Under the pieces are notes generated by a model. That model made no database searches. It saw only the letters and a list, made by a program, of their open reading frames with translations, and had not been told where the DNA came from. 64,000 bases of DNA. It comes from an uncultured delta proteobacterium. Its GTDB lineage: Bacteria > Desulfobacterota > Desulfobacteria > Desulfobacterales > JAFDCJ01. The position numbers and the translations under genes were made by a program. Position 1 is the first letter of the stretch. Each line of letters starts with the position of its first letter. Of this stretch, positions 19,521 to 45,124 are shown piece after piece. The stretch lies in assembly GCA_963769935.1 (NCBI GenBank), contig CAVYNY010000010.1, forward strand, positions 480,001 to 544,000. The letters are read 5' to 3'.

Positions 19521-19546
19521 TTTACAGGCTGTAAAAAAACTCGACA
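19521..19546. promoter_or_regulatory. Putative enhancer (bEBP binding site), class A
   Basis: TTTACAggcTGTAAAAAAacTCGACA, nearly identical to 37123-37148. Confidence 0.6.
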
Positions 19547-19640
19547 CTCAACGATCCCGCCGGCCGTCTTTTTATACTTTCAATTTAGAAATTCCCTTTA
19601 CTTTTAATTACTTATCTAAATCGACGCCGCAAGTACCGCA

Positions 19641-19656
19641 TGGCACACCCTTTGCT
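19641..19656 (+). promoter_or_regulatory. Sigma54 -24/-12 promoter
   Basis: TGGCAC-accct-TTGCT. Confidence 0.8.
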
Positions 19657-19756
19657 GAATGTTGAGGCAGATGTGCAGCGCATTCGAATATCACCCTGGT
19701 GCGATATCCCTGTGCTGAGACTATAAAAATCCATTCACATATAAGGAGGTCGTCTG

Positions 19757-20572
19757 ATGAAAAAGAATTCTATTTTGCGTTTACTTGGTATCATTGCTCT
19801 GCTGATCGCAGCCGGAATGCTGCTCCACACGCCGGCCGTTGCCAGCGATTTACTGCGTTACAGCAGCTCGGCCCAGGTCCGCGAAGCCTTCGGCATGGAA
19901 GGTTTAAATGCTTTCAAGGAGGAAAGCGGGGTGGATCTGGATTTGTGGATCGGCTCATCGGGTTCCGCGGTCCATCGGCTGATGAACGGGATCGCCGACA
20001 TCGCCAGCACGGTGGAGAGGCTTGAATTCAGCGCTCAGGATTACGGCTATGTCGAGATTCCGTTCTGCAAAGCGCCGCTGATCGTCATCACCAATGCCAA
20101 AACGCCGGTTCGCAATGTCTCCAGCGATCAGCTGCGTTCAATATTCAACGGCAGCATCGCCAACTGGAAGGAACTGGGAGGTCCCGACCAGAAGATTATT
20201 GTGGTGGCTCCGGACAGAAATACCGGTGCTTTCAAGAACTTCAGACAACTGGCCCTGAAACGCTTTGATGTCAGGTACGATTTTATGGCCTACCGGTCCA
20301 CGGATGTCGTCACACTGGTGCACCGCATTCCCTGGAGCATATCCTTTATCTCCCAGGGTTCCGATACCGTGGATGAAGCCATCCGGACAATTCAAATCGA
20401 CGGGAAATCTCCGGCCGATTCTGATTATCCCTATCATCAGATATTTTCTTTTGTCACCAAGGGGCAGCCCACCGGGGCGGCACAAAAGCTCGTCGATTTT
20501 GTCTTCTCCGAGAAGATGCAGTCAATAATGATGAAATTCGGCCTGCAACCGTTGCCTCGCCCGGCACAATAA
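19757..20572 (+). CDS. Periplasmic substrate-binding protein (PstS/PBP-like), with no cognate ABC genes
   Basis: Signal peptide; GSSGSAV..LMNGIADIA, IFNGSIANWKELGGPD, YPY motifs. Confidence 0.75.
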   Translation: MKKNSILRLLGIIALLIAAGMLLHTPAVASDLLRYSSSAQVREAFGMEGLNAFKEESGVDLDLWIGSSGSAVHRLMNGIADIASTVERLEFSAQDYGYVEIPFCKAPLIVITNAKTPVRNVSSDQLRSIFNGSIANWKELGGPDQKIIVVAPDRNTGAFKNFRQLALKRFDVRYDFMAYRSTDVVTLVHRIPWSISFISQGSDTVDEAIRTIQIDGKSPADSDYPYHQIFSFVTKGQPTGAAQKLVDFVFSEKMQSIMMKFGLQPLPRPAQ

Positions 20573-20663
20573 ATGGGAAAACGACGGCAGGGGCAATCCG
20601 GGGACCGGCTTGCCCCTGCAGGTCAGCGGATTGTCCTCCGGAAAATCAGGGATCTTAAAAACA

Positions 20664-21062
20664 ATGAATAAACCACTTACAATTTTGGTCGCAGATCGCA
20701 ACTCCCACGTGCGGGAATTTCTGCAGAGAGAGCTAAAAGCGGAAGGCTACGATATCCGGTTGGCTAAATGCGGCCCGGAGGTCCTTAAATGGGCCTACCT
20801 TTTGCAATTCCTTGACCTTATCATTCTTGACCTGGATTTGCCCGACTTGGACGAACAGGCATTATTCAGCAAACTTCAGGACCGCATTCCGGTATTGCCG
20901 ATCGTGATCCATTCTTTTCAGTCGGATGGCGCGAAACGTTCCGTCAACTACGAAAATGCGGTTTTCGTAGAAAAAAGAGGAAACAGCATCGAAAAACTGA
21001 AAAAGGTGGTCAGCGAGCTCCTTGCGTACCGGGCAGCCAGCCAACCGTCAACAGCTAAATGA
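20664..21062 (+). CDS. Stand-alone receiver domain, atypical acidic pocket
   Basis: ILVADRN...LIILDLDLPD...FVEK. Confidence 0.8.
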   Translation: MNKPLTILVADRNSHVREFLQRELKAEGYDIRLAKCGPEVLKWAYLLQFLDLIILDLDLPDLDEQALFSKLQDRIPVLPIVIHSFQSDGAKRSVNYENAVFVEKRGNSIEKLKKVVSELLAYRAASQPSTAK

Positions 21063-23192
21063 CAGACACTTCCAGACCGAAACTTGCCAAGCGTATTGCC
21101 GTGTCCGTCGGTGCCGGAGGTATCCTTTTTCTGATTGCCGGGGCGCTGCTCGGTCTCTGGACCATTCAGGAAATGAAAAAAATCGTGACCGGCCAGTTCA
21201 ATCAGGAGCAGCTGGTCATCGCCCGCACGGTCAAGCAGCGCATCGAAAGAGAGATCAAATTTTTGGCAAAAGAGATCTCGTTGCTGGCGGGGAATATCTC
21301 AGCCGAGCCGTTGGCGCCGGAAAACGGCAATGAGCGCATCCAGCAGAGTTTCGCCCGGGTTCTGGAAAGCGGTGTTTGGAAGATTGAAATAATCGATCCG
21401 GCCGGCGGCCGCCGGCATATATTTATGCCCCATCGGCACTGGACCGCACAGCCCCCGGCCGAGATCGACCCCGATGATATCCCGCTGCCGCAGGGCCTCA
21501 CGACCGGAACGGTTTATATTTCTCCGGTCCGGATCAACGCATCCGGATCGGCGCTGGTCCTGGCGGCACCTTTATCCGCTGAACCCGTCCGGTATCTGGT
21601 TTTTCACATCAACGTTTCATGGCTGCTGGCCCCCTTTTTAAGGGAAATACGTTCCGGCCGAACCGGCTATGTCTGGCTGATCGATCAAACCGGCCGTTTT
21701 CTCTTTCATCCGGACGCCGGTTTCATCGGGAAAAATGCATTTACCGTACGCCGGCAAAAGTATCCGGATGTATCCTTTGTGAAGATCAATTTCATTCAGA
21801 AGGAAAAAATGCTCACCGGCAACGAAGGTACCGGCTGGTATGACTCGGGATGGCACCGGGGCATTACCGGCCCGATTAGAAAGTTGATTGCCTATTGTCC
21901 GGTGGTCATCTGTGAAAAGCCGGCTCAAACGTGGTCGGTGGCGGTGGTCGCACCGGTTTCGGAGATCGAGGGCGCCCTGCGAAAAAGTTCCCTGCAGTTG
22001 TTTATGCTGCAGGGATTGGTGATTGTCTTCATTGTGTCGGGCAGTGCCGCCCTGCTATGGTTTGAGATCCGCTGGTCGCGCCTGCTGGAAAAAAAAGTAT
22101 CCCAGCGTACCGAAGAGTTGAAAAAATCGGAGGAAAAATACCGCTCGCTGGTGGAAAGCGCCGAAGATTTCATTTTTACCGTTGACAACGGCGGTCAATT
22201 TCAATCCATGAACAGTTTTACCGCCAATTTCTTCGGCGGGCATCCGGATGACTTTGTCGGCAAACCTCTGGCGGGTGCATTTTCCGAAAAGATAGCCCAA
22301 AAGCAGCTTAAACTGATCCGCCTGGTGTATCAACACGGCAAGAGTGTCCGGGAAGAATTCGAGATCCAGCTGGAAGACCACCCTATCTGGATCAGCGCCA
22401 ATTTCATGCCCATCAAGAATGACCTCGGAGAAGTCGGTTCGGTTTTATGTATTGCCAGGGACGTCACCGAAAACAAAAATCTGGAAAGACAGCTGGTGAA
22501 TACCGAAAAACTCGCCTCGCTGGGGACGCTGGCCGCCGGGGTTGCCCATGAAGTCAACAATCCTCTGGGGGTGATCCTGGGCTTTACCGATATCTTGATC
22601 CGCAAAGCAGATAAAGACTCGCAGGACTATGAAGACCTTAAGATAATTGAACGGCAGGGATATCACTGCAAGGAGGTGGTCGAAAACCTGTTGAGTTTTG
22701 CCCGCCTGGAAGGAGGCAGCCTGGGACATGCCGATGTCAACGCGTGTCTGGAGGAAATCATCAAAATTGTCCGGCATGTTCTGGAAATGAACCGCATCGA
22801 GCTCGTCGCGCGCCTGCCCGGAGACTTGCCGCCGGCCAGAGCAGATGCGCGCCAGCTGCAGCAGGTGTTTTTAAACCTGATCAACAATGCCGTCGCCGCC
22901 ATGCCGGACGGCGGCACATTGACGATTCAAAACCGCCTTGAAAAAAAACAGCGCAAGAATTGCGGTTCAATTCCGGGATACCGGCTGCGGCATAAAACCG
23001 GCGGATATCGATCACATTTTCGAACCGTTTTTTACCACCAAACCGGAAGGACAGGGAACCGGTTTGGGATTATTCGTCAGCTATGGCATCATCGCCAAAT
23101 ATGGCGGCACCATCGACTGCTACAGCCGCCATAGCGACAACCCGGGCCGACCCTCCGGAACGACGTTTACCGTCAGACTGGTCCCGGTTTGA
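21059..23192 (+). CDS. Cache-PAS sensor histidine kinase (one frameshift at the A8 run 22941-22948)
   Basis: TM-Cache-TM, PAS, AHEVNNPL, N box; G1/F/G2 boxes (DTGCGI, FEPFFTTK, GTGLGL) continue in ORF 22938-23192. Confidence 0.88.
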
Positions 23193-23270
23193 CTGTGACT
23201 AAGTGCTCTTATTTGTGACTAAGTGCTCTATTGATGACGATTACGGTTACATACTGCCGGCAATAATTTT

Positions 23271-23546: not shown

Positions 23547-24973
23547 ATGAACGGCAGCATTTTAATCGTCGACGACGAAAAAGACATGCTGATTCTTTTG
23601 AAGCGGATTCTCTCTGAAGAAACGCCTTACAAACTGGTCACCGAGAGCGATCCGCGGCAGGCCCTGGAGCGGGTCCGGCAGCGCCATTTCGATGTGGTGC
23701 TCACCGATCTTAAAATGCCGGAAATGGACGGCATTCGGCTGCTGGAGGCGTGCAAGAAAATCAGACCCGAGATTTCGGTAATTATTCTGACCGCCTATGC
23801 CACGATCGAAAATGCGGTGGAAGCCATTAAAAAAGGCGCGCATGATTATATCACCAAACCGTTCCGCCGCGAACGCGTGCTTTTGACCCTTGACAAAGCC
23901 ATGAAATGGCAGGCCATGGTCGACGAGAACCGAACGCTGCGCCAGGCGCTGGCTGAAAGAAACGGGTTTGCATCCCTGGTGGGGTCGACGCCGGTGATGC
24001 AGAATATTTTCGAGCGGATCCATCAGGTCGCGCCCACCATGGGAACCGTGTTGATCACCGGCCCCAGCGGCACCGGCAAGGAACTGGTCGCCCGTGCCAT
24101 TCATCAGCACAGTTTGAGAAGCAAAAAAAAACTGGTTACCGTAAACTGTACCGCCATCCCGGAGCAGGTATTGGAAAGCGAACTTTTCGGCCATGTGAAA
24201 GGGGCCTTTACCGGGGCCTGGCAGGATAAAAAGGGCCTGGTTGAAACGGCGCATGAAGGAACGCTTTTCCTGGACGAAATCGGCGATCTCAGCCTCCAGA
24301 TGCAAACCAAGCTGCTGCGGCTGCTGCAGGAAGGCGAATACAAGCCGGTCGGCGGCGTCACCACCCGGCAGGCCGATCTGCGTTTCATCGCCGCCACCAA
24401 TCATGATTTGAAAGCCGACATCAGGGGGAACCGTTTCCGCGAAGATCTGTACTACCGGCTGAACGTCATCCGATTTGACCTGCCGTCCCTCAAGGAGCGG
24501 CAGCAGGACATCCCGCTGCTGGCCTATCATTTCCTGGAAAAATACGCCCGCCGCAACCAGAAAAATATCCCGTATATTTCACCGGAGGCCATGCAGATTC
24601 TCATATCACAGGAATACCCCGGCAACGTCAGGGAGCTGGAAAACACCATCGAACGCGGCGTCATCTTTTGCCGGTCGGATACCCTGAAAGTCAACGATCT
24701 TCAGCTGGAATACGACCGCAACGAGATTCCGGCGGAATTCAATGAAGACATCACCCAGCTGCCCTTTAGAGAAGCCAAGGATAAAATGACTGACATTTTT
24801 CATCGACTCTATATCCGGAGCCTTCTCTCAAAAAATGCCGGCAATATCAGCAAAGCGGCCGATATTGCCGGAATTCAACGCCAGTATCTTCATCGCCTCA
24901 TGAAGGAGACGGGCATCCGGGCCGAGGATTTCAGGCCCACCGACTATGTTCCATTTCACGGTACCGACATTAA
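23547..24973 (+). CDS. Sigma54-dependent response regulator (NtrC-type REC-AAA-HTH)
   Basis: REC, GPSGTGKE, ESELFGH, GAFTGA, FLDEIG, YPGNVREL, Fis-type HTH; real end estimated at ~24973-24996, annotated ORF reads through to 25550. Confidence 0.9.
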
Positions 24974-26012
24974 AGGCATACTGCAGGATCACATAGATCA
25001 AATAGATCCCGAAGAGCCAACAGCCCTGCCACCTCTTAAACCGGCCGTCCCGGTTGATGAATATAAACAGCCGGAAGGAATAAAGAATGAGGAGCATGGT
25101 TGGAAAGTGGAACTCATAGAAGTTGGGCGGCACCGCCAGGGGCCTGGCCGCGGCTGCGGCACCGATGACGAAAAGACAGTTCAGTACATCCGCCCCCACC
25201 ACATTGCCCACCATGATTTCCGGATGCTTTTTGCGCACGGCGGCAATGGCCGTCATCAGTTCGGGCAGCGATGTACCCAACGCCACCATGGTGGCCGCGA
25301 TGACGTCATCGGGCACCCCCATCCGGCAAGCAATCTCGCCCGCGCTGGGAACCAGGACCCGGGCCCCGCCGACGACCAGCACCAGTCCTCCGCCCAGCAT
25401 CAGCCAGCACTTTCCCAAACCCAGCATCTCGGAATCGTCCTCTTCCTCGCCGGCCAGGGCCAAATCCGCTCCCTGCTTTGCCCAAATATAGGTGATGTAC
25501 ATGTAGCCGGCCAGCAGGCACAGGAGCAACACCCCAACCCAACGCTGTAAAACCGGCTCGCCTTGCGTGCCGGCCAGGGCAAGCACCGCGATGACGACCA
25601 GCAGGGTCGCCGCCCCTACCTGGACCCACCCCGTTCGATTGAGAATAAAGCGGTTGACCGGCACGGTTGCCAACATACATGTCAAGCCGAAAATCAAGCC
25701 TGTGTCGGCAATGATAGACCCGACCCCGTTGCCCAACGCCAGCCCCGGGTCGCCCATCCAGGCCGCCATGACCGAAACGACGGCCTCCGGCATGGTCGTA
25801 CCGAGTGAAATAATCGTGGCCCCGATAACGATGCGGGGCAGTCCGGTTCGACGGGCCAGTTGAACGACACCGTCAATCATCCAGTCGGCGCCTTTGGACA
25901 ACAGCAAAATACAGAAAGCAATTACGGCCACCAAAAGAATGATGGGCAATCCCTGCACAAGTTCGCTCAAATATCTTTCATCTCCGATCCAACGCAGCAC
26001 TTCTCCTAACAT
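24931..26012 (-). CDS. Calcium/sodium antiporter (YrbG/CaCA family)
   Basis: Two alpha repeats GATIISLGTTMPE and ATMVALGTSLPE, GNGVGS/GNVVGA; 3' end uncertain (ORF runs to 24828). Confidence 0.9.
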
Positions 26013-26088
26013 CCGCATTCCTCCCGATTTTGAGTTTTGACGCCCGCTAAAGGCGCCGGCAATAACGCGCCGGAGTGTTGGAGTACTT

Positions 26089-26307
26089 TCACTTTTTGGC
26101 CTCTCGCAACCCCATTTCCTGGAAAGCATCCGCAAGCCGAATCACACCGACCGGTCTGGCCCCCCGGGTAACGGCGATGCACTTTAGGTTGAATGTCACC
26201 ATCAGCTCGATCGCCCGGGTAATTCTTTCCTCCGTCGTCACCGATGGATGAAGCGGCACGCCGTCCTGGAAAGGCTGGATTATGGCGGTAACCGTCCGTG
26301 TTTTCAT
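26089..26307 (-). CDS. Small CBS-domain protein
   Basis: SVTTEERITRAIELMV...IAV...PVGVIRLAD. Confidence 0.7.
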   Translation of the reverse strand: MKTRTVTAIIQPFQDGVPLHPSVTTEERITRAIELMVTFNLKCIAVTRGARPVGVIRLADAFQEMGLREAKK

Positions 26308-26613: not shown

Positions 26614-26632
26614 TGTCACTTGGCAGTTGACA
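26614..26632. promoter_or_regulatory. Putative enhancer, class B
   Basis: TGTCAC-N7-TTGACA; similar to TGTAAC-N7-TTGACA at 34049-34067. Confidence 0.45.
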
Positions 26633-26762: not shown

Positions 26763-26778
26763 TGGCACACATCTTGAT
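26763..26778 (+). promoter_or_regulatory. Sigma54 promoter (variant -12) for TSUP
   Basis: TGGCAC-acatc-TTGAT. Confidence 0.6.
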
Positions 26779-26889: not shown

Positions 26890-27930
26890 ATGACAGAAGA
26901 AGTCAAAACCAAAGGTTGGGAGGTAGCCCGGGATCTGGAGGCGAAAAAATCAACCATGTGGGAACGGTTTATGCCGGGGAAAAGACAGCTGATCGCTGCC
27001 GCCTGGGGATTTTCGGCCCTTTTCGCGGTATTTTTGCTGGGGTGCTGGCTGGCCGGCAATCCGTTTGAAGCCACCAAGCGGATTGCTTCGCCATTTGTCG
27101 AAAAAATGGGCTGGATTGGCACCAATGAATGGGGCATTCTCTGGAGCGTGGTATTGGTTGCCATGTTCTTTGAGTTTATGGATGCTTCGGCCGGTATGGG
27201 ATTTGGCACGGCCATCACGCCGCTGCTGCTGCTGATGGGATTTAACCCCAAGCAAATTGTGCCGGTGGTCATGATCCAGCAGGGCGTGGCGGGTCTGGTG
27301 GGGGCCTTTTTGCATCGCGAGTTTGAAAACGTGGAATGGAAGTTCAGTCCCATGTCGGAAACTATCAAACTGTGGCTGTACATCGCCATAACCGGCTGTG
27401 CGTCGGTAGCCCTTTCCATCACCGCCGTCTACGGCATATTTAACGTGGCCAAGATTTGGATCAAACTCTACGTGGCCGTACTGCTGGTGATGATGGGGGT
27501 CGTCTCGCTTTACCAATCGAAAAAAGACCGTCCATATAAGCCCAAAATGATGATCGGCTTTGCGGCCCTGGCAGGCTTTAACAAAGGCGTGGGCGGCGGC
27601 GGCTACGGCCCGGTAGTAACCGTCGGCGGCTTGATTGCCGGCGTGCCGGTCAAAAGCATGCTGGCCGTCACGGCCATATCGGAAGGCACCACCAGCACCT
27701 TCTCGGTCCTGGTCTGGCTGGCGCTGCTGACTAGTGGAGTGACCATCGACTATCTGCTGCTGCCGTCGATGATGCTGGCCACCATGTTCACGGCCGTGGC
27801 CGCTCCCTACACCACCCGGGTTTTTCCCGAAAAGGCCTGGAAGTTTATCGTACCGGTATACTGCTGCATTCTCGCCGCCTACACGTTTTACAAGGTCATA
27901 CCCGACATTGTCTCGAAGCTCGCCGGATGA
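26890..27930 (+). CDS. TSUP (TauE/SafE) family transporter
   Basis: DASAGMGFGTAITPLL and FNKGVGGGGYGPVV repeats, multiple TMs; RBS gaggag. Confidence 0.88.
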   Translation: MTEEVKTKGWEVARDLEAKKSTMWERFMPGKRQLIAAAWGFSALFAVFLLGCWLAGNPFEATKRIASPFVEKMGWIGTNEWGILWSVVLVAMFFEFMDASAGMGFGTAITPLLLLMGFNPKQIVPVVMIQQGVAGLVGAFLHREFENVEWKFSPMSETIKLWLYIAITGCASVALSITAVYGIFNVAKIWIKLYVAVLLVMMGVVSLYQSKKDRPYKPKMMIGFAALAGFNKGVGGGGYGPVVTVGGLIAGVPVKSMLAVTAISEGTTSTFSVLVWLALLTSGVTIDYLLLPSMMLATMFTAVAAPYTTRVFPEKAWKFIVPVYCCILAAYTFYKVIPDIVSKLAG

Positions 27931-28041: not shown

Positions 28042-28581
28042 ATGACCATTCAACAAACATCTGCAGCACTTTACTCCGGTGGGCAAACCTATCGGCGTAC
28101 CTACGGTCAACAGCGATTGGTTCATTTCGGCATCACCATGATCGTTATGGGTGTCTGTTTCTTTTTGTATTACCTGGGTTTTTTCGGCGGGGTGGACGGC
28201 CCCCTGAATCCGGCGCAATTGGGTGAACATCTGTCGGCTTCAGGCGTGTCCAGGGTGCACCTCATCATCGTGACTGCCGTTTTGATGCTTCTCTCCCTGG
28301 GCTGGAATTGGATCTTCAACCTGGCCTGTCTCCGGCTCGGCAGGCGCTTGACCTGCAGCCGGGCTGACGGACAAGGCGGTATCTGCGGCGGACCAGTCAG
28401 ACGGCAGGCGGCGGTACCGCAGGCAAAAAACAGCAATCGTAGCCTGCGCTATGTATGCACCCACGGTCACACGCTGCCGAAGGCCCACTTCCACCCAATT
28501 AAAAAAGGCACCATCAGCCATATGCTCTGGGTGACATCGCTGATATTTACCGTCGTTGTTTTGTACGCGTCCTATTTCTAA
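28042..28581 (+). CDS. Hypothetical membrane protein with Cys/His cluster
   Basis: 3 hydrophobic segments; LTC...ICGG...YVCTHGH...AHFH; RBS ggag. Confidence 0.65.
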   Translation: MTIQQTSAALYSGGQTYRRTYGQQRLVHFGITMIVMGVCFFLYYLGFFGGVDGPLNPAQLGEHLSASGVSRVHLIIVTAVLMLLSLGWNWIFNLACLRLGRRLTCSRADGQGGICGGPVRRQAAVPQAKNSNRSLRYVCTHGHTLPKAHFHPIKKGTISHMLWVTSLIFTVVVLYASYF

Positions 28582-29763: not shown

Positions 29764-31456
29764 ATGGATGAATTTCTGAATATACGCTGTCCCAGGAGCG
29801 CTCCGGCGATTTTCCTTATTTTCGCCGCACATGGAATACCGTGGTCGTCACGCTGCTGGCCGCGGCCTTTGTACCGCTGATCATCATCGGCGGCGGCAAT
29901 GTATTCCTATCTCACTTGGGTTATCAAGCAAAAGACTGTTGCCACCCTGCGGGTGGATGCGCTCGATCTCAAGAATGCGGTCGATCAATTTCTGGCGGAA
30001 CGGACCATGGATCTGAAGCTGATATCCGAAAATATCGGGTCTGCGCAGCCTGCGCGATCCGCAGACCCTGCAAAATGTCTTTCACTCCCTGCAGCAGCAG
30101 TTGCCCTGCTATACGGACCTGGGGGTCATCGATGATCAGGGCCGTCATCTGGCCTATGCGGGCCCTTATGATCTTTTAGGGAAAAATTACCGGCAGGCCG
30201 ACTGGTTTGAAATCGCAATGGCCCGCGGCGTATACATCAGCGATGTCTATTTGGGATACCGCAATACCCCCCACTTCGTCATCGCCGTCAAAGCAGGCCG
30301 GCAGTGACGGCGCCTGGCTTCTGCGCGCTACGATCGACACCGATTATTTCCATCGCATGATCGCCGCCATCGCTGAAAAGAGCAATGCCGACGCCTATCT
30401 CGTAAATCGCCGGGGTGTCTATCAGAGCAGGCCCCGTTCGACCGGACAGTTAATGGAGCAGTCCCGGTTTACGGATCTCAAGCCGTTTGAGGGAGTCGCA
30501 TTTCGAGAAGCAAACGATCATCTGTTGATGACCGTCTGGCTGGAAAAGGTCCCCTGGCTGTGTGCCGTCCGGATGGATCGCAAAAATGCCTTCGCCGAGC
30601 TCAGGCGCATTCGTATGATCGGCATCTGGGTCTTCGTGCTGGCAGCCATCCTGATCGTGATGAGCGTGCTGCTGACCACCAACCATCTGGTGTCCCGCCT
30701 GGAAGTCAAACGCCGCAGCATCCGCTTTCTGGACCGCCAGCTGCGCCAGTCCAATCGTCTGGCGTCGGCCATGGAATTGGCCCTCGGATTTTTCCGGGAA
30801 ATAAAAGACGGCCTGGCAAATATCGATGCGGCCGCCATGAACATCCAGGATCTGTGCCGCAGCAATCCGGCGGCGGAAATAACCGAGAGCCTCTCGCAGC
30901 TTCGATCGGAAACGGCCCGCGCCGCAGGTCCATCGATAAATTCCTGCGGTTCACCCGCAGCACCGAACCGATCGTCAAGGCGCTGAATGTAAACGAAGTG
31001 CTCGATGATTTGGTCGAATTGGTGGACAAAGAACTGCGCTTCAACAACATCCGGCTGGTCCGCAACTATGAAGATTCCCTGCCTGCCATCCGCAGCGATC
31101 CTGCCGGCCTGCGCCAGGTCTTTCAGAATCTGATCCTCAATGCCGTGGCCGCCATTCAGACCAACGGCGAAATCTCGCTGACAACCCGGCGACAGGCCGA
31201 CAATGTGGTGGTAGCGGTCGCCGATAGCGGTCCGGGAATCGCCGCGGAGCATCTTGCAAAGATCTTTGAACCGCTGTTTACCACCAAGCCCGGCGGAACG
31301 GGTTTAGGGCTGCCGATCTGCGCCGACATCCTAAAGCGTTTGGGCGGGCGGATTGCCGTGCACAATCCGCCGGAAGGCGGAGCCTGCTTTGTGGTAAGTC
31401 TTCCGATTCAATTCAACCCTCACCCGGATGAATTGGAACCAAAAAGAACAAATTAA
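29764..31456 (+). CDS. Cache sensor kinase-like protein with degenerate H-box (multiple frameshifts)
   Basis: Pieces in ORFs 29841, 29899, 30101, 30207 and 30560 align with paralogues 34832 and 37375 (DLGVID..GRHLAY.GPY, YISDVYLGYR..PHF, LRATID); HATPase boxes intact; start approximate. Confidence 0.75.
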
Positions 31457-34163: not shown

Positions 34164-34179
34164 TGGCATGGTTCTTGAG
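34164..34179 (+). promoter_or_regulatory. Sigma54 promoter (variant -12)
   Basis: TGGCAT-ggttc-TTGAG; class B site 115 nt upstream. Confidence 0.55.
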
Positions 34180-34831: not shown

Positions 34832-36628
34832 ATGGAAACCCGGACAGCAACCCCCAACGGCAGCCGCGAGAGCAGCACCGGTGAGTGGCGCAAGAAATAC
34901 TACTCGCGTTTGTTCCGCAAATTCGTTCTTTTAACCGTCTTCTGTTCGCTGACGCCGCTGCTGCTGGTGGGGTGGGGCATAAACATTTATTACACGCGCT
35001 TCGCCAGGGAGCGCATGCTGAATGATCTGCAGACCGAGGTAGCACACCATCGTAAAATTATCGAACTTTTTTTAGCCGAGCACAGCTCAAAGCTGCGTCT
35101 TATCGCCCATTCCCATTCGAAAATCGATTTAACCCGGATTTCGAACCTCACCGGCATTTTCGATATGATCAACCGCGATTACTGGGCCATCACCGACCTG
35201 GGCATCATCGATGCCGACGGCCGGCATCTGGCCTACATCGGTCCCTATGATTTAATGAGCAAAAATTATTCCGAGGCGGTCTGGTTCAAAGAGGTCATGC
35301 AAAAGGATATCTACATCAGCGACATGTTCATGGGATTCCGCCAGGAGCCTCATTTTATCATCGCGGTAACGCGCCTGGAAAACGGTGCCAAGTGGATTTT
35401 ACGCGCCACCGTCAATACGGAGGTCTTTCGCTCCCTGGTCGAAAATGTCCGCATCGGAAAAACCGGTCAAGTGTACCTGCTCAACCGCGAAGGCTATTTT
35501 CAAACCACTCCTCGCTTCCAGGGAAAAATAATGGAAAAGGCGCCCTACCCCATCGAAGCCTACCAGCCGGGCATGCGCGTCAGAGTTCTGGCAGCGCAAA
35601 ACGGAGACGCCTCCGGAAGCCGGCCGCGTCAAATCGTATGCGAAACATGGCTTGAGAACCCAAAGTGGCTGCTGGTGGTCAGGCAAAATTATGCCGAAGC
35701 TTTCAATGACGTCAATCACGCCAACTATGCCATCCTGATCTTTCTTCACCTCAGCGCACTGACCATTCTGGTGGTCGCGATTCTGATTACCCGGCATATG
35801 ATTTCTGTAATCAAAAATCGCGACCGGGAAGCCGACCAGCTGAGCCGGCAGCTCTTGCAGACAGGAAAGCTGGCGGCTATCGGCCAGCTGTCGGCCGGCG
35901 TGGCGCACGAAATCAACAACCCGCTGGCCATTGTGCTGACCGAAAGGCAGCTTTTGCTGGACGCCGCCGAACGACATCAGATTCAAAGCCGGGAGTTTGA
36001 GATCCAATTTGAAGATTCCATGAACCAAATCGATGTGCAGGTGCAGCGCTGCAAACGCATCACCCACAATTTGCTCAGATTTTCCCGCCGGACGGAATCC
36101 CTTCTGGAAACGGTGGATATCAATCAGTTTATCAGGGAAGTCATCGAGCTGATGGAGCGCGAGGCGCGGGCCGACGGAATTAAATTCCAGGTGGACCTGG
36201 ACGAGTCGCTGCGGCCGTTGGTTTCCGATATTTCCCAGCTTCAGCAGGTTTTTTTAAATATCATTACCAATGCCATTGACGCCCACGACGGCAAACCCTA
36301 CGGTGCCATCCGCATTAAAACCAGGGCCGGCAAAAACAACGACGGGGTGTCGATTTCATTCAGTGACAGCGGTTCGGGCATTGCGCCTGAAAATTTAGAT
36401 AAAATATTTGACCCGTTTTTTACCACCAAACCCGTGGGCAAGGGCACCGGCTTGGGTTTATCGATCTGTTACAGCATCATGAAACAGCTGGGCGGACACA
36501 TTGCCGTGCAAAGTGAAGTCGGCAAGGGATCTGAATTTACGCTGTTTATTCCCGACAATCCGCCCACACAACTACGGGAAGACATGGCCAATGCGCAGGG
36601 AGCGCAGTTGGCGGCAATGTCATTCTAA
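34832..36628 (+). CDS. Cache sensor histidine kinase
   Basis: 2 TMs, [10 protein letters not shown]1/F/G2 boxes. Confidence 0.93.
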
Positions 36629-36640: not shown

Positions 36641-37099
36641 ATGATAGGATCAAAAATTTTGCTGGTCGATGATGAAGTCGTATTTACCCAGAATATGGCA
36701 AAGCTGCTGTCCAACCGGGGATATGCCGTCACGGTGGTCAACAACGGGGATGCTGCGATTCGAGCACTGGAGGAAAAGGATTTTGACGTGGTGGTGCTGG
36801 ACCTCAAGATGCCCGGCAGGGACGGTATCACGACCCTGAGGGAAATCAAAAAACTCGGTCTGCTCACCCAAACGCTGATTCTGACCGGGCACGGCTCGAT
36901 CGATACCGCCCTGGAGGCGATCAAGATAGGGGCCTATGACTATCTCACCAAGCCGTGTGAAATTGACGAACTCATCGGCAAAATTGAAGGCGCTTGGGAA
37001 AAAAAAGACGGTGAAGTAAAGAAAGACATCCAGGAAAAGATCCAGAAAGTGGTGGAATCGCCCCAGGATGTATTCGACCTGTTTCCGAAGAAAAAATGA
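36641..37099 (+). CDS. Stand-alone response regulator
   Basis: LLVDDE, LDLKMPG, LTGHG, LTKP. Confidence 0.92.
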   Translation: MIGSKILLVDDEVVFTQNMAKLLSNRGYAVTVVNNGDAAIRALEEKDFDVVVLDLKMPGRDGITTLREIKKLGLLTQTLILTGHGSIDTALEAIKIGAYDYLTKPCEIDELIGKIEGAWEKKDGEVKKDIQEKIQKVVESPQDVFDLFPKKK

Positions 37100-37122: not shown

Positions 37123-37148
37123 TTTACAAACTGTAAAAAATATCGACA
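37123..37148. promoter_or_regulatory. Putative enhancer, class A
   Basis: TTTACAaacTGTAAAAAAtaTCGACA; same spacing to its promoter as 19521. Confidence 0.6.
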
Positions 37149-37243: not shown

Positions 37244-37259
37244 TGGCATATAACTTGCG
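37244..37259 (+). promoter_or_regulatory. Sigma54 promoter
   Basis: TGGCAT-ataac-TTGCG. Confidence 0.78.
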
Positions 37260-37374: not shown

Positions 37375-39063
37375 ATGAAATCGAATCCATACGGCGCGCT
37401 TAAAAAGACGATTTTGACCTGTATGATCCTGGTGCCTTTCATCCCATTCATTCTGGCGCTGGGCATCGGCTACTACAATTTTGCCGCTTCGCTGGAAAAC
37501 AATGCCACCACCGGCATGCACCGCATCGTGCGCGACCATCGCCAGATGATCGAATCATTTCTGATGGAAAGAAAAGCGGATCTGGAATTCATTCTCAACA
37601 CCCACGGTTTTGAAGAGCTGCGCCGGCCGGAAAACATTGAACGTGTTTTTGAAAATTTGCAGAAGGAATCACCGGCCTTCGTGGATCTGGGAATTTTCGA
37701 CGAAAACGGTCTGCATGTGGCCTATATCGGACCCTATCAGCTGTCGGGCAAGGATTATCACGAGGCTCCCTGGTTTAAAGCAGTGATCAAAAACGGGTTT
37801 TTTATCAGCAATGTGTTTCTCGGCTACCGGCAGGTGCCGCATTTTGTGATCGCCGTCGCTCAGACAGCCCAAGATCGCCCGTGGGTTATCCGCGCCACCA
37901 TCGACAGCCACATTTTCAATGATCTGGTCAAAAATGTCCGGATCGGTAAAACCGGCGAGGCCTACCTGCTGGATGCCCAGGGCATTTTTCAAACAGATCG
38001 GCGCTCCGGCGGAATCGTGATGCACCAGGATCCGGATCGCCTGAAGTACGGTCCGGTTCTTGCGGGGATCAAAACATTTATTGATACCGATGCCTTGGGG
38101 GAAACCTATCTGTATGCGACCACCTGGCTCAAAGACAACAGCTGGCTGTTGGTGGCTCGCCAGGAGAAAGCCGATGCCTTTCATGCCCTGCGCCGGGCCG
38201 CCTATCTGATCGGGTTGATCAGTATTCTGGGAGGCGCCGGAATTATCGCCGTGGCCTTCTTTGTGACCGGCCTCATCGTCCGCCGCATGGAACGTACGGA
38301 CCGGGAAAAAAATCAACTGGGGGAGCAGCTCATCCGGGCCGGCCGGCTGGCCGAAATCGGGGAGATGGCCGCCGGGTTTGCCCATGAAATCAACAATCCG
38401 CTTCAGATCATCAAAAGCGAACACGCCCTGGCGGAAATGATTCTGACCGATCTGAAAAGCAAGGGCCAGTTGACGCCATCCGAAGATTTGACGGACCTGG
38501 AAGATTCCATCGATCAGATTAAACGCCAGGTGGACCGCTGCGCGGAAGTCACCCAGGCGATTCTGAAATTTGGTCGCAAAGGAGAACCCGTATCCCAGGC
38601 CATCGATCTGGGCGGCCTTATTCCGGATGTCGTCGGGATGGTCACCCGGAAAGCCGAGGTGCACGGCATCACCATCAAACATCAAATCGCCGCGGATATT
38701 CCCGCCGTCTACGGCGACCCCCGACATCTCCAACAGGTGCTGGTGAATCTGCTCAACAACGCCATCGATGCCGCCATCGAACGCCACGGGACTTCAGGGG
38801 GCGAAATCCGGATCGAGTCCGCCCCTTCCGCGAAAAACCGTCATGTGGAAATCAAGGTGTGCGACAACGGCAGCGGCATCAGCACGGAAAACCTGGAAAA
38901 AATTTTTACCCCCTTTTTTACGACCAAGCCGGTCGGCAAGGGAACAGGACTCGGGCTATCGGTATGCTACGGCATTATCCAAAAGATGGACGGGGACATG
39001 GCGGTTGCCAGCCAGGAAAACGTCGGCACGACATTTACCATCCGGCTGCCCTCAATGGGCTAG
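37375..39063 (+). CDS. Cache sensor histidine kinase
   Basis: 2 TMs, [11 protein letters not shown]1/F/G2 boxes; paralogue of 34832. Confidence 0.93.
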
Positions 39064-39292: not shown

Positions 39293-39754
39293 ATGGAAAA
39301 AATGAAAATATTGCTGGTGGACGATGAACAACGCTTTCTGGCCACCACCCAAAAGCTGCTGGCCAAAAAAGGGATCGATGCGGTCACCGCTGCCGGCGGA
39401 GCAGAAGCCCTGGACATCTTAAACAGCCGGAGCATCCACGTCGTCATCCTGGATGTTAAAATGCCGGGGATGGACGGCAATGAAACCTTAAAGGAAATTA
39501 AAACACGGTTTCCGCTGGTGGAGGTCATCATGTTGACCGGCCATGCCACGGTGGACTCCGCCATCGACGGCTTGAAATCCGGCGCCACCGATTATCTGAT
39601 GAAGCCGACCGGTATCGATGAACTGATCGAGAAAGCTACGGAGGCTTTTGAAAAAAGGCAGCGCCTGGAGGAAAAAATACGGTTGGCCCAGGCTCGGCAG
39701 TTCATGAAATCGCCGCGGGAAATTTTAAAAGGGGCTGGGAACCTGGAAAGTTGA
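39293..39754 (+). CDS. Stand-alone response regulator
   Basis: LLVDDE, LDVKMPG, LTGHA, LMKP. Confidence 0.92.
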   Translation: MEKMKILLVDDEQRFLATTQKLLAKKGIDAVTAAGGAEALDILNSRSIHVVILDVKMPGMDGNETLKEIKTRFPLVEVIMLTGHATVDSAIDGLKSGATDYLMKPTGIDELIEKATEAFEKRQRLEEKIRLAQARQFMKSPREILKGAGNLES

Positions 39755-39768: not shown

Positions 39769-41622
39769 ATGGCAGAACGGACCAAAATCAAAGCGACCGG
39801 TTATGACAAGTACGTCAATTGGAAAATATTTTTCATCCCTGTGACCCTCCTGTTCGTTATTTTACTGATGCCCACACCCTACGGCATGCAGGATGTCGGT
39901 ACCGAATACAAAGTCGGGCCCAGGGCGGTTGTCAATTTTCTCACGGAAACACTGTTCAGCAAAAAGAGCGGGTCAGCCGAACAATGGGAACTGGCTTGCG
40001 CCCAAATCATGGAACAAAACATGCAGATGGGTGCGTTGGGGAAAAAGGGTTTCCTGAAGCGCAATTTAAAATGGGCGCAGAGCTACGGCATCCCCGTCGA
40101 CAAGGAAAATTTTGACAAAGCCATGGCCTTTGTCAAAGAGCGTATCAGCGATGAGGATTACCTGGCAACCATGCAAAAAGCCCTGACGCTGCGCAAAGAC
40201 GGCCTTAAATACGAAGAACTTTCCGCCCAGGACCGGCCGGCGGCCGACAAGGGCGCCTGGCATATCAAAGTCGCCATGGCCATGGTGGTTTTCGTCGCCA
40301 TCTGTTTTTTAACGGAGTGCATTCCCCTGCCCGGTGTGGCCTTTTGTGTCGGCTTGCTGCTGGTATTTACCGGTGTGGTTTCGCGCAAAGAAGTCGCCAT
40401 GCTCTACTGGGACGATGCCGTCTGGTTTATTATGGGCAGCCTCATGTTTGCCGCCGCCTTCGTAAAAACCGGCGTGGACAAGCGCGTGTGTCTGATGATG
40501 TTCAGCAAGCTCGCCGTCCCCAACGTACGCTGGATCACCCTGATTTTTTTTGCCATCATCAGTCCGCTGGCGGCGTTTATCTCCGACCATGCGCTGGCCG
40601 CGATGTTTCTGCCCATCGGCATGCTCCTGTATCAGAACAGTTTGACCCGCGAGGTTCCCGAAGATCCCGAGCTGGGCAAAATGCTGATGATTTCCATTGC
40701 CATGGCCTGCAATATCGGGGGTCCCGGGGCCCCGTCGGGAGGAGCCCGCAACGTAATTATGATGACGTACCTGAACGATATGTTCGGCATGGATATCGGC
40801 TATTTTCAGTGGGTCGTCTACTGTTTTCCCTATGTGATCGTCATGATTCCCCTGACCTGGTTTTTCGTCAACTGGCGGTTTAAACCCAAAATTCATTCTC
40901 TGGCGCCGGCCATGATCCAGCTGAAACGTGAAATCGATAAAATGGGCGGCTGGAACCGGCGGCAGATTTCGGCCCTGATAATATTTGTGCTGATGGTCTT
41001 CGGCTGGTTCACGGAAAAGACCTTTTACGAAATGGGCATATTGCCGGTGCGTCTGGGAATCGGTGTGATTGCCATGGCCGGTGCCGTAGCGTATTTGTTT
41101 GCCGGCGTCACCAATTGGAGAGATTATCAGGAAAAAGTGGATTGGGGCGTGATCTGGTTGTATGCCGGGGCGATAATTTTCGGCCGAATTCTGGACAGTA
41201 CTGGAGCAGCCTACTGGCTGGCACGCTCCGTTCTGGAGGTCCTGGCACCTTTGGGCATGAATTCCGGCATTCCCCTGCTGGCCACCTCCAACGGCCTGAC
41301 CGCCGTCATCACCAATCTGATGGCCGATGGGCCGGCTGCCGCGGCTGTCGGTCCGATTACACTCAACATGGCCGGGCTGGCGCATCCGGGCACTTCTTTT
41401 CTGCCGTTTATGTCAATGAGCACCGCCATTGCTTCGTCATTCGCCTATTGCCTGATTATCGGCACCCCGCCCAACGCCATCGTATATGCCAGCGGCTACC
41501 TGGAACCCAAGGATTTTTTGCGGGTCGGCCTGCCGCTGTGGATTGTGGCCAACGTGCTTTTGGTATTGATAAGCGCGATTTTCTGGCAAATGATGGGCTT
41601 TGGCGATTTGCCGATTTTTTAA
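39769..41622 (+). CDS. SLC13/DASS family anion transporter with large soluble insert
   Basis: LTECIPL, FISDHALAAMFLP, PSGGARN, VDWGV, IGTPPNAIVY; RBS gagga. Confidence 0.9.
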   Translation: MAERTKIKATGYDKYVNWKIFFIPVTLLFVILLMPTPYGMQDVGTEYKVGPRAVVNFLTETLFSKKSGSAEQWELACAQIMEQNMQMGALGKKGFLKRNLKWAQSYGIPVDKENFDKAMAFVKERISDEDYLATMQKALTLRKDGLKYEELSAQDRPAADKGAWHIKVAMAMVVFVAICFLTECIPLPGVAFCVGLLLVFTGVVSRKEVAMLYWDDAVWFIMGSLMFAAAFVKTGVDKRVCLMMFSKLAVPNVRWITLIFFAIISPLAAFISDHALAAMFLPIGMLLYQNSLTREVPEDPELGKMLMISIAMACNIGGPGAPSGGARNVIMMTYLNDMFGMDIGYFQWVVYCFPYVIVMIPLTWFFVNWRFKPKIHSLAPAMIQLKREIDKMGGWNRRQISALIIFVLMVFGWFTEKTFYEMGILPVRLGIGVIAMAGAVAYLFAGVTNWRDYQEKVDWGVIWLYAGAIIFGRILDSTGAAYWLARSVLEVLAPLGMNSGIPLLATSNGLTAVITNLMADGPAAAAVGPITLNMAGLAHPGTSFLPFMSMSTAIASSFAYCLIIGTPPNAIVYASGYLEPKDFLRVGLPLWIVANVLLVLISAIFWQMMGFGDLPIF

Positions 41623-41649: not shown

Positions 41650-41814
41650 ATGAAACAAAAAAGCGCCGCTGCGAGTCCGCCGCAAAACGAGGCTCTGCTT
41701 CATTTCAGAGAAGGCAAAATCTATTTCAGCCGTCAAACCGAGCGCAGGTTTTTCTTTGCCCTGACGGTCATGATGCTGATTCTCGGGCTTTGCTTTAAGC
41801 TGGGAATCTTTTGA
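41650..41814 (+). CDS. Small 54-aa single-TM protein (not in the ORF track)
   Basis: RBS aaggag; MKQKSAAASPPQNEALLHFREGKIYFSRQTERRFFFALTVMMLILGLCFKLGIF; fills the gap in the operon. Confidence 0.6.
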   Translation: MKQKSAAASPPQNEALLHFREGKIYFSRQTERRFFFALTVMMLILGLCFKLGIF

Positions 41815-42350: not shown

Positions 42351-42460
42351 CCGGCGGTACCCAGGCAAGCGGATATCGGCCGGGTTTGAGCATTGATTTT
42401 TCCACGGTGGCGTGTGACGATTAAACGCGATAACGGATCAAGGAAAAGGAAGAAGATAAG

Positions 42461-43363
42461 ATGAGCAAAAAAATTAGAGTTTTGATGGTCGACGATGAGG
42501 AAAAGTTTCGATCGACCACCAAAAAAATTCTCGATCGACGCGGATTCGACACCCTGGTTGCGGCCAGCGGTGAAGAAGCCCTTGAAAAGCTGAAGGAAAG
42601 TCCGGATGTCGTGGTTATGGATGTCAAGATGCCCGGCATGGACGGCCATCAGACGCTTCATGAAATGAAGAAGCGCACCCCCGCCACCCCGGTAATCATG
42701 CTCACCGGCCATGGAGCGCTGCCCTCCGCCAAAGAAGCGCTCGAACAAGGTGCCTTCGATTACCTGACGAAACCCTGCGACATCGATATACTGGCAGCTA
42801 AAATCACCGATGCCTTCCGGCACCGGAAACCGGCCGAAGAAATTAAGGAGAAAACCGTCGCGGATGTCATGATCCCGATAGCGGATTACACCACCGTAAA
42901 TCAGAACAGCACCGTCGGTGAAGCCATTGACAAACTGCGCGAATCATTCTTCTCCCGGGAAGCCACCAGCCGCATTATGGAAACCGGTCACCGCTCCATC
43001 ATGGTATTCGACGACCAGGGGGATGTCATCGGCATCCTGGCCATTATCGATCTGCTCGACGCTGTCATGCCGGGGTATCTCAGCGCGCCCAAGCCTTCGA
43101 CGGCGGACAGCATCCAATATTCGCCCATGTTCTGGAGCGGCATGTTCACCAGAGAGATCCGGAAAATTGCCGCCCAAAAGATTTCCGATGTAATGTCCCC
43201 GGCTCCCCTGACGATCAGCGCCGAAGCCAATCTCATGGAGGCCGCCTATGCCATGGTGGCCAATAAAAAAAGACGCCTGGCAGTTGAGCAGTCCGATAGG
43301 ATCATCGGCATCATCCGGGAGCAGGACCTGTTCTTTGAAATCGATAGAATTCTGCGCGAGTAA
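42461..43363 (+). CDS. Receiver + CBS-pair protein
   Basis: REC motifs, then VADVMIP...ISDVMSP...IGIIREQDL. Confidence 0.9.
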   Translation: MSKKIRVLMVDDEEKFRSTTKKILDRRGFDTLVAASGEEALEKLKESPDVVVMDVKMPGMDGHQTLHEMKKRTPATPVIMLTGHGALPSAKEALEQGAFDYLTKPCDIDILAAKITDAFRHRKPAEEIKEKTVADVMIPIADYTTVNQNSTVGEAIDKLRESFFSREATSRIMETGHRSIMVFDDQGDVIGILAIIDLLDAVMPGYLSAPKPSTADSIQYSPMFWSGMFTREIRKIAAQKISDVMSPAPLTISAEANLMEAAYAMVANKKRRLAVEQSDRIIGIIREQDLFFEIDRILRE

Positions 43364-43453
43364 ACGATCCCGGCCCGACGGGCCGGACTTTGAATTGTCA
43401 ACTAAGGGGCTGTGAAATTAAAATTTTAGAGTGCCGGCTTCCGGCTCGAAAGG

Positions 43454-43585
43454 GTATTGGAGTGATGGAGTACTGGAGTAATGGAAAAAGGCTGGATGTC
43501 TGTTTTTTCAACACGAAAACACGAAATTTAAAAAACACGAAACTTTTATATTCTCTTTTTCGTTCTTTCGTGCTTTCGTGATTAA
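43454..43585. repeat. Octamer repeats (tggagtaa-like) and CACGAAA hairpin element
   Basis: tattggagtgatggagtactggagtaatgg; aacacgaaaacacgaaa...tttcgtgctttcgtg. Confidence 0.65.
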
Positions 43586-43633
43586 TTTCTTTTTTGGTTC
43601 TCCGCCTCCGGCGGATCCAGGTTAGGAGCATTT

Positions 43634-45124
43634 ATGATGTTAGAGCAAAGATCTTTTCCTGTTCTGACGGCCGAAGAAGCTGTTATGCATATCAAAGACG
43701 GCGACGCGGTGGCCTTTAGCGGGTTCACCCCGGCCGGCGCGGCCAAGGCCGTGCCCAAGGCATTGGCCAAACGAGCGCTGCAGGAGCACGCGCTCGGGCG
43801 TCCGTTCAAACTGCGCATCCTGACGGGCGCATCCAGCGGCCAGGAAATCGATGAGGATTTGGCCCGCGCGGAAGCCGTCGTCTGGCGCGGACCGTATCAA
43901 GCCGGCCAGGCCATCCGGCAGCAAATCAACCGGCAGCAGGTGGAATATGTGGATATGCACCTGTCCCATGTTCCCCAAACCATCGCCTTCGGCTTCTTCG
44001 GCCGGATTAATTTCGCCGTGGTGGAAGCCACCGAGATTACCCCCGACGGCCGTGTGTACCTGAGCACCTCCATCGGCGCATCGCCCACCTATCTGCAATA
44101 TGCCGACAAGGTCTTCATCGAAATCAATCGGAGCCAATCGCCTCGGCTGCGGGAAATGGCCGACATTTTTGTCATGCCGCCCCCGCCGCACCGCAATGCC
44201 ATCCCGCTGTTCGATCCGTTGACCCGCATCGGTTGGCCCTATGCCCAGGTGGACCCCAAAAAAGTCATCGGCATCGTCTATAATGATGAACCCGACCGCG
44301 TCGACGAATTCGCGCCGCCCGACGAGCACAGCCGCCAAATCGCGCAGTATGTGGTCGAATTTTTGCTGAGTGAAAAACGGGCCGGTCGGATTCCGGCGGA
44401 TTTCCTGCCCCTGCAGGCCGGGGTCGGCAACGTGGCCAATGCCGTCCTCGGGGCCATCGGCGAACATCCCGACATCCCGCCCTTTAAAATGTATTCCGAG
44501 GTCTATCAGGATGCAATGGCCGACCTGATGGAGGCGGGTAAATTGCAGGGAGCCAGCGCAACGAGCCTGACGCTGACAGCGGCACGTTTGCAAAGAATTA
44601 CGGAGAACTTCGACTTCTTTGCCCCGCGGATTGTTTTGCGGCCGCAGGAAATTTCCAACCACCCGGGAATCATTCGTCGCCTGGGCGTCATTGCGATGAA
44701 CACGGCGCTGGAAATCGATATCTACGGCAACGTGAATTCATCGCATCTATACGGTATGGATGTCATGAACGGCATCGGCGGCAGCGGCGAATTCACCCGC
44801 AACAGCTATCTGTCTATTTTCATGACGCCGTCCATCGCCAAAGACGGGAAGATCTCCAAAATTGTGCCCATGTGTCCCCACATCGACAACAATGAGCATT
44901 CGGTTCAGGTGGTCGTCACGGACCAGGGGCTGGCGGATCTCAGGGGCCTGGGGCCCATGCAGCGGGCCAGGCTAATTATTGAAAAATGCGCTCACCCCCT
45001 TTACCGAGATTATCTGCAGCGCTATATCAAAGAGGCCCGCACCGGTCACATCCGCCACGACCTGACACGCTGCTTCGAACTTCACCGCAATCTCATGGAA
45101 CACGGGACGATGCTGCCGGAGTAG
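43634..45124 (+). CDS. Acetyl-CoA hydrolase/succinate CoA-transferase family
   Basis: SGFTPAG, TGAS, DMHLS, LQAGVGNVANAV, YSEV (catalytic Glu), NGIGGSGEF. Confidence 0.92.
   Translation: MMLEQRSFPVLTAEEAVMHIKDGDAVAFSGFTPAGAAKAVPKALAKRALQEHALGRPFKLRILTGASSGQEIDEDLARAEAVVWRGPYQAGQAIRQQINRQQVEYVDMHLSHVPQTIAFGFFGRINFAVVEATEITPDGRVYLSTSIGASPTYLQYADKVFIEINRSQSPRLREMADIFVMPPPPHRNAIPLFDPLTRIGWPYAQVDPKKVIGIVYNDEPDRVDEFAPPDEHSRQIAQYVVEFLLSEKRAGRIPADFLPLQAGVGNVANAVLGAIGEHPDIPPFKMYSEVYQDAMADLMEAGKLQGASATSLTLTAARLQRITENFDFFAPRIVLRPQEISNHPGIIRRLGVIAMNTALEIDIYGNVNSSHLYGMDVMNGIGGSGEFTRNSYLSIFMTPSIAKDGKISKIVPMCPHIDNNEHSVQVVVTDQGLADLRGLGPMQRARLIIEKCAHPLYRDYLQRYIKEARTGHIRHDLTRCFELHRNLMEHGTMLPE

Follow-up and report, generated by a model that had tools for sequence, protein, structure and literature searches.

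Among described systems that come close to the locus reported here is a 30.5-kb DASS cluster of Desulfosarcina variabilis 3be13, which was published in 2025 and is widespread in the Desulfobacteraceae; the section on that cluster proposes kinase sensing together with energy sensing by CBS domains and terms the regulators WalR-type (PMC11887813). The window analyzed in this study is 64,000 nucleotides long (positions 480001-544000 of contig C10 in G000, the 8.0-Mb, 41-contig genome of an uncultured Desulfobacterales bacterium), and about 25 kb of it carries Cache kinases (HK), receivers (REC), CBS proteins and transporters that the original prediction, made from the letters alone, had taken for one integrated cluster. 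However, a check of neighborhood conservation showed that this region is two separately conserved modules lying side by side, and one conserved 25-kb network is not supported. Module B consists of a PstS-like binding protein (PBP), REC1, HK3-REC3-DASS-REC/CBS and a CoA transferase. Module A consists of HK1-NtrC-A, a lone CBS protein, a TSUP permease, a REC/CBS protein, HK4, a GNAT-HDAC fusion and HK2-REC2. The two modules may well form a two-tier sigma-54 cascade with module-wise pairing of kinases and receivers and an HK4 that works without phosphotransfer, a reading to which we give a probability of roughly 0.55.

Conservation of module A was counted at 58 loci anchored on the GNAT half, with loci having enough flank as denominators. 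GNAT was accompanied by HDAC (55/56), HK2 (46/51), REC2 (42/47), HK4 (38/48), REC-CBS1 (40/46), TSUP (36/39), NtrC-A (30/36) and HK1 (28/36), so module A genes co-occur in 68-98% of these loci. TSUP is usually adjoined by the membrane protein gene hypA (34/39 loci), while a close homologue of the CaCA antiporter occurs in 6 of 38 loci, which makes it accessory. Only 5 of 36 loci, spread over several families, have DASS1 and HK3 beside module A. The named loci with the same genes are mostly from the Desulfobacterales, and module A is tightly conserved yet found in a minority of that order: close TSUP matches occur in 19 of 200 genomes of the order, with most of module A present at 16 of the 21 TSUP loci examined. 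The GNAT half was found in 1 of 300 genomes phylum-wide and in none of 22 congeners. Module A is also present in the type strain Desulfospira joergensenii DSM 10085 (L080). At a Syntrophobacter-labelled locus (L068), REC-CBS1, HK4 and GNAT-HDAC are retained with TSUP and HK2 absent from the available flanks, which ties those three genes together.

DASS1 orthologues of at least 52% identity were present in 11 of 40 relatives and were accompanied by HK3, REC3 and REC-CBS2 in 7 of 8 loci examined. Near DASS1 in 6 of these 8 loci was a second DASS (DASS2, 28-29% identical to DASS1), along with further kinases and receivers and usually an NtrC; TSUP or HDAC was absent from the examined DASS1 loci except in G037. 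In the congeners G008 and G013, module B adjoins a DASS2/NtrC-B half (REC-HK5-REC-DASS2-...-NtrC-B), which in this genome is on contig C13 and 79-80% identical. Module B thus comes with two DASS of low mutual identity, several Cache two-component systems and CBS proteins, and by this architecture it probably belongs to the published DASS cluster, for which sulfate uptake is predicted. Because the gene order in G008 is PBP-REC1-HK3, module A here sits inside module B; close to that junction, G013 contains an insert of unrelated genes. The CoA transferase recurs next to either module.

Genes were called by open reading frame (ORF) listing and assigned to families with Pfam and NCBIfam, and every part of the predicted inventory was located in the window: six receivers (an NtrC, two REC-CBS and three stand-alone), a lone CBS, the PstS-like binding protein, TSUP, DASS, CaCA, GNAT-HDAC and a YgfH-type CoA transferase. 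Four dCache_1 kinase-like genes are present as predicted, but HK4 lacks the phospho-acceptor His, so the set is three kinases and one pseudokinase. The proposed paralogy of three of them was borne out, as the sensor regions of HK2, HK3 and HK4 are 31-42% identical and that of HK1 fails to align. The five predicted sigma-54 sites are likewise in place (19641+, 26356-, 26763+, 34164+ and 37244+). The features, in window coordinates, are as follows.

19521..19546, + strand: class A enhancer TTTACA-N3-TGTAAAAAA-N2-C-N-GACA, candidate NtrC-B site; score 37.1; 120 bp before the -24 box
19641..19655, + strand: sigma-54 promoter (TTGC) of PBP-REC1-HK1-NtrC-A
19757..20572, + strand: orphan PstS-like binding protein (PBP), module B, class A target
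20664..21062, + strand: REC1, stand-alone receiver of atypical kind, with a stop codon overlapping the start of HK1 (ATGA)
21059..23192, + strand: HK1, dCache_1-PAS-HisKA-HATPase kinase; one frameshift near 22955
23547..25550, + strand: NtrC-A, REC-AAA+-HTH; homology up to about 24950, the same ORF continuing for about 200 aa antisense to CaCA
24828..26018, - strand: CaCA, YrbG-type Na+/Ca2+ antiporter, accessory
26089..26307, - strand: lone CBS protein, a single repeat of 72 aa
26342..26356, - strand: sigma-54 promoter (TTGC) of CBS-CaCA
26614..26632, no strand: class B enhancer TGTC-N11-GACA amid the divergent CBS/TSUP promoters, candidate NtrC-A site
26763..26777, + strand: sigma-54 promoter of the TSUP operon, -12 box TTGA
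26890..27930, + strand: TSUP/TauE-family permease
28042..28581, + strand: hypA, membrane protein outside known families with conserved C-C-C-H residues
28814..29657, + strand: REC-CBS1; one frameshift near 29414-29447
29764..31456, + strand: HK4, dCache_1 pseudokinase without His (GFFREI at the H-box); four frameshifts
31580..34024, + strand: GNAT-HDAC, GNAT fold fused to a predicted Zn-dependent class II-like deacetylase; six frameshifts in the GNAT half
34049..34067, no strand: class B enhancer upstream of HK2
34164..34178, + strand: sigma-54 promoter of HK2-REC2, -12 box TTGA
34832..36628, + strand: HK2, intact dCache_1 kinase
36641..37099, + strand: REC2, stand-alone receiver
37123..37148, + strand: class A enhancer, second copy; score 38.0
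37244..37258, + strand: sigma-54 promoter (TTGC) of module B
37375..39063, + strand: HK3, intact dCache_1 kinase
39293..39754, + strand: REC3, stand-alone receiver
39769..41622, + strand: DASS1 symporter
41650..41814, + strand: small conserved membrane protein, 54 aa
41829..42350, + strand: hypB, hydrophobic protein
42461..43363, + strand: REC-CBS2
43634..45124, + strand: CoA transferase, succinate/acetate-type, accessory; TIGR03458 exceeds cut-off

The five sigma-54 sites compare with 0.375 expected and a maximum of 3 in 200 shuffles, using a pattern that was widened to include the TTGA box after that box had been seen; the TTGA -12 box is conserved in orthologues (22/23 TSUP promoters and 31/35 HK2 promoters). 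Together with upstream enhancers and the GAFTGA motif of NtrC-A, these -24/-12 promoters have the sequence features of a sigma-54 regulon. The five promoters divide by enhancer into two classes. At the PBP, HK3 and orthologous DASS-cluster promoters, class A is located 120-124 bp upstream of the -24 box, and the two window sites score 37.1 and 38.0 against a maximum of 17.0 in 200 shuffles, with a matrix trained on relatives. The matrix has 28 matches in this genome, nine of them with a sigma-54 site 120-124 bp downstream. Among the genes behind these nine composites are all three DASS operons, two PBP operons, and genes for an ArsB/MamN-like transporter, an AcuB-like protein and a CoA-disulfide reductase-like protein, as well as USP and a NuoEF-like operon (both read from sequence). 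Exact class A composites number 30 in 14 of 22 genomes, against 0 with a reversed control. HK1, too, has class A no more than 1.5 kb upstream in 14 of 30 distinct genomes, in varied gene contexts, three of these being training sites; the set was 35 rows less three duplicates and two mis-indexed rows, and it includes three loci with under 250 bp upstream. The same enhancer class thus links module B to the HK1-NtrC-A pair of module A, and its presence before HK1-NtrC-A suggests a regulatory cascade.

Class B precedes TSUP at 15/23, HK2 at 29/35 and CBS at 17/21 orthologous loci with a detected promoter, where the CBS and TSUP counts often rest on one common intergenic region. In this genome class B is limited to module A, with strong scores at the two window sites only. 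NtrC-B is carried by 16 of 17 genomes with a module A TSUP, and the recognition helices of NtrC-A and NtrC-B differ (GIQRQYLHRL vs GLSRPTLHSK). On the basis of this co-occurrence and the distinct helices, we infer that class A is bound by NtrC-B and class B by NtrC-A. The original prediction survives in part: conserved signaling units are grouped around the anion transporters and linked by a common enhancer class, but a mesh of four kinases does not fit a His-less HK4 and separate groups of receivers.

Several further genes stand behind these enhancers. One C15 locus (C15:67615-86200, L101) has two class A promoters, one before a CBS-like gene and a third DASS, the other before a REC-kinase followed by NuoE/NuoF-like genes (read from sequence), a link between the regulon and redox enzymes. 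At C13:189239-189916 (L099) a class A enhancer stands before the gene of a CBS-pair protein resembling AcuB (E 3e-35 against Thermus 5awe and 2e-22 against Geobacillus AcuB), with a gene for a second PstS-like protein next in order; G013 and G039 likewise have an AcuB-like gene after a class A site. As a partner of the deacetylase this AcuB-like gene is a weak candidate, as it is under class A in G013, where no module A GNAT match was found. At the PBP/REC1 junction of G013 (L005:3315-5183), a CoA-transferase-GNAT fusion (read from sequence) lies behind a class A promoter. A class B enhancer with a TTGA promoter precedes an AMP-dependent acyl-CoA synthetase (read from sequence) in G037 (C72, L114), a single case and possible substrate lead.

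HK4 has Arg at the H-box position where HK2 and HK3 have the phospho-His, and it retains the ATP-binding boxes N, G1, F and G2. His is absent from 39 of 42 HK4 orthologues (present in 3), whereas the H+4 residue is acidic in 42/42 and H+1 in 38/42; L034, a different kinase bearing His, was left out of an HK4 count. HK4 forms a separate, well-supported clade and has the invariant sensor pocket residues in common with HK2 and HK3. By these sequence features HK4 is a pseudokinase, and the selective retention of ATP boxes and pocket despite loss of the His argues for a function without phosphotransfer. In HisKA phosphatases the H+4 residue positions the catalytic water, which is the basis for proposing that HK4 may act as a phosphatase; a decoy role is also conceivable. 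Given its pocket, HK4 likely shares its ligand with HK2 and HK3.

All receivers except REC1, whose acidic pocket is atypical (ADRN), retain the phosphorylation residues, and both REC-CBS1 and REC-CBS2 keep the Asp of the nucleotide site in their CBS domains. Helix 1 is the kinase-docking surface of a receiver. This helix reads FxxN[ML]xxLL in REC2 and REC-CBS1 and FxxTTxK[LI]L in REC3 and REC-CBS2, and that of NtrC-A belongs to neither group; mean BLOSUM scores are 1.79 and 1.92 within modules compared to 0.89-1.51 between them. A six-position subset of the helix, picked after inspection, was set aside as evidence. Kinase DHp residues past the H-box also differ by module. These differences favor branches that run in parallel and are connected through transcription, rather than a network in which every kinase serves every receiver, and suggest that the receiver branches are insulated, without cross-talk.

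The GNAT and deacetylase form a single ORF at 46 of 51 scored orthologous loci. For the N-terminal half, an AlphaFold model (pLDDT 88) places a GNAT fold at residues 164-337, with Z of about 11-13 to many GNATs and a Foldseek E of about 1e-3, a comparison that bears on these residues and barely covers 1-160 and 340-430; the Pfam GNAT family scored under its cut-off in 10 of 15 rows. As modeled, this half is a GNAT-fold acetyltransferase. A tRNA substrate was considered, since TacT/AtaT toxins are the top structural rows, and was not assigned because RimJ, Pat and N-terminal acetylases tie with them within about 1 Z. The deacetylase half keeps PPGHHA, GFC and EGGY in 46/46 sequences and invariant catalytic D, H and GFD columns across 33 rows, and its closest solved structures are class II (HDAC6 and HDAH). 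It is thus, by sequence, a Zn-dependent deacetylase with an intact active site and predicted activity.

In the cascade that we favor, NtrC-B of the DASS cluster, a probable sulfate-uptake cluster, would activate both module B and the pair of HK1 and NtrC-A, the latter of which would in turn activate the TSUP, pseudokinase, GNAT-HDAC and HK2-REC2 genes. Per module, one intact Cache kinase would phosphorylate one stand-alone receiver and one REC-CBS (HK3 to REC3 and REC-CBS2; HK2 to REC2 and REC-CBS1), and HK1 would serve NtrC-A only. HK4 would be a phosphatase, decoy or heterodimer partner without phosphotransfer. For the receivers that lack an output domain, protein binding is the likely mode of action, with CBS pairs adding adenylate sensing; in module B the likely target would be DASS1, and in module A either GNAT-HDAC or TSUP. 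A more tentative extension makes module A a ligand- and energy-gated acetylation switch under the sulfate-uptake regulon, in which HK2 would phosphorylate REC-CBS1 and REC2, HK4 would set the threshold through the same anion, and the receivers might toggle the single GNAT-deacetylase polypeptide, so that it adds acetyl groups to respiratory or acyl-CoA enzymes in one state and removes them in the other.

Several points weigh against the cascade and pairing predicted here from sequence. Class A was not found before HK1 in 16 of the 30 genomes, although several of these have short flanks or an HK1 within an operon, and in G044, where module A genes occur, no match to NtrC-B was found. Since 4 of 11 exact class B composites of other genomes precede unrelated genes, the class B motif may be common to other activators. 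REC-CBS1 and HK4 are each absent from some lineages, and related genomes are not independent observations. The receiver tree leaves the proposed pairs unresolved (support 87/33), and the Cache fold search gives no ligand, as the neighbors, at 8-16% identity, have ligands as varied as amino acids, pyruvate, succinate and purines. When the Cache alignment was searched against PDB sequences, there were no matches.

The most probable candidate for the ligand is a small anion, either sulfate or an oxyanion akin to it. The PBP resembles PstS, and DASS1 has SDH, GGARN and DGP at the places of the VcINDY SNT/SPPN/SNT motifs, lacking both SNT motifs, with a substrate-site Arg conserved in 118/118 homologues. 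Expression of DASS genes in sulfate-reducing bacteria is described as shifting with sulfate level (PMC5840216), and the published cluster proposal points the same way. The alternative that the shared ligand is a carboxylate such as succinate or acetate would have the system tune organic-acid uptake and acyl-CoA metabolism and not sulfate uptake, with an acyl-CoA synthetase or CoA transferase as target of GNAT-HDAC. The recurrent CoA transferase, the KinD and DctB sensors among the Cache fold neighbors and the acyl-CoA synthetase promoter of G037 speak for it, but each of the transporter, binding protein and expression observations speaks against it, and we regard it as possible but doubtful.

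The original prediction, in which cross-talk among all the kinases and receivers would give them joint post-translational control of TSUP, DASS and CaCA, is unlikely. HK2, HK3 and HK4 do have a sensor pocket in common, the modules are adjacent at some loci of several families, and the published model depicts putative protein-protein interactions (PMC11887813, Fig. 5). However, the 25-kb arrangement is not conserved, the DHp residues and helix-1 signatures are module-specific, CaCA is accessory and one kinase is His-less. It is quite unlikely that a local insertion merely brought independent modules together, that no link in their regulation is conserved and that HK1-NtrC-A just landed behind the PBP-REC1 promoter. 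Such an event would fit the failure to find module A in the 22 congeners, its interruption of the PBP-REC1-HK3 order and the insert near the same junction in G013, but class A precedes HK1 in different contexts in the 14 genomes and with scores above all 200 shuffles.

Compared to intact orthologues, the region has 12 single-base frameshifts (HK1 1, REC-CBS1 1, HK4 4 and GNAT-HDAC 6), of which 11 are extra bases, and no nonsense codon or in-frame stop was found in these genes. Short-read contigs from two studies show an indel difference at at least 5 of the 12 breaks (22955, 30037, 30920, 31856 and 32304), as judged from the best 12 of 36 rows, with the best contig possibly from the source sample; no RNA dataset was listed as containing the region. 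The predominance of extra bases, the lack of stops and the short-read differences indicate that the frameshifts are probably assembly errors. That module A is decaying by real pseudogenization is highly unlikely on these same grounds, even though module A contains all 12 breaks, with none seen in module B, 11 cluster within 29.4-32.8 kb, and the stop codons of both NtrC-A and CaCA are lost. The convergent genes NtrC-A and CaCA, neither with a stop at the expected place, share about 720 bp at 24828-25550, and NtrC-A is 667 aa long compared to 465-498 aa for full-length orthologues, either a real deletion or an assembly fault.

Of the remaining genes, hypB had no Pfam or NCBIfam match, hypA matched unnamed clusters only, and no sigma-54 site of its own was found for the CoA transferase. 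The region is flanked by a divergent TetR-AcrA-AcrB RND efflux operon (14159-19310, - strand) and, downstream (45448-48441), by a SEC-C methionine aminopeptidase, an amino-acid-kinase-family protein and PadR; one more strict sigma-54 site is at 57039 (- strand). Palindromic intergenic elements lie at 23200-23400, 31450-31560, 34190-34820, 39060-39290 and 43360-43630. Contig depth is raised in bins over those at 31.5, 34.2-34.8 and 39.1 kb, consistent with multi-copy repeats, and one element puts 670 bp between the HK2 promoter and HK2.

The expectation that related clusters exist in sulfate reducers uncharacterized has to be revised for one half: the DASS half was already described with nearly the same proposal in the text of PMC11887813, whereas no account of module A was found in the open-access literature. 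The main text of that paper has no occurrence of TSUP, TauE or deacetylase, and its supplementary Figs S21-S23 may show module A genes; the available portion of PMC11532494 has no occurrence of "Desulfo" or "fused". How sulfate reducers tune sulfate uptake from micromolar to millimolar levels is an open question, for which the 2025 model, as far as its cluster section goes, names no tested regulator. With its two enhancer motifs, the two activators proposed for them and the kinase-receiver pairing predicted here, the system lends itself to direct testing. If the proposed functions hold, two-component signaling would be coupled to acetylation in an unusual way, through a natural His-less Cache kinase that has its neighbors' pocket and lies beside a fused acetylase-deacetylase.

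HK4 is comparable to DivL, a histidine pseudokinase that is kinase-like without normal phosphotransfer and reportedly thought to modulate a paralogous pathway. An evolved ChrS variant fits the same description in the part of its report that concerns the variant, but it lost the ATPase domain, whereas HK4 lost the His and its ATP-binding motifs stay (PMC9491836). HK4 is distinct in having a periplasmic dCache_1 pocket in common with two neighboring active kinases. In the Bacillus AcuABC-AcsA switch, as outlined in PMC13121692, a GNAT, a Zn-dependent deacetylase and a CBS-pair protein are likewise in one operon. Unlike in AcuABC, the GNAT and deacetylase are fused here, the deacetylase has its best PDB matches in class II, and the CBS pair is fused to a receiver and not to an ACT domain. 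The module A operon has REC-CBS and no AcuB-type CBS-CBS-ACT protein, the AcuB-like gene being elsewhere on C13; in AcuABC the CBS protein reportedly binds the deacetylase and inhibits it. No adjacent acetyl-CoA synthetase was present among the ORFs scanned at 14-51 kb, relatives' loci having been compared with window proteins only. The sigma-54 TSUP operons of Desulfovibrio vulgaris, in the regulons summarized in PMC4641369, are similar in that each activator controls 1-4 operons through TGT...ACA enhancers and TSUP is a frequent target, though enhancer spacings are given there as 9, 11 or 12 bp compared to 13 in class B, and the -12 consensus as tTGCt compared to the conserved TTGA of module A. 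In the D. variabilis cluster, too, the DASS transporters are accompanied by Cache kinases, receivers and CBS proteins, a comparison made by architecture. However, its section on the cluster invokes no sigma-54 enhancers (PMC11887813), whereas here the cluster has sigma-54 sites, is split over two contigs and has module A inside it.

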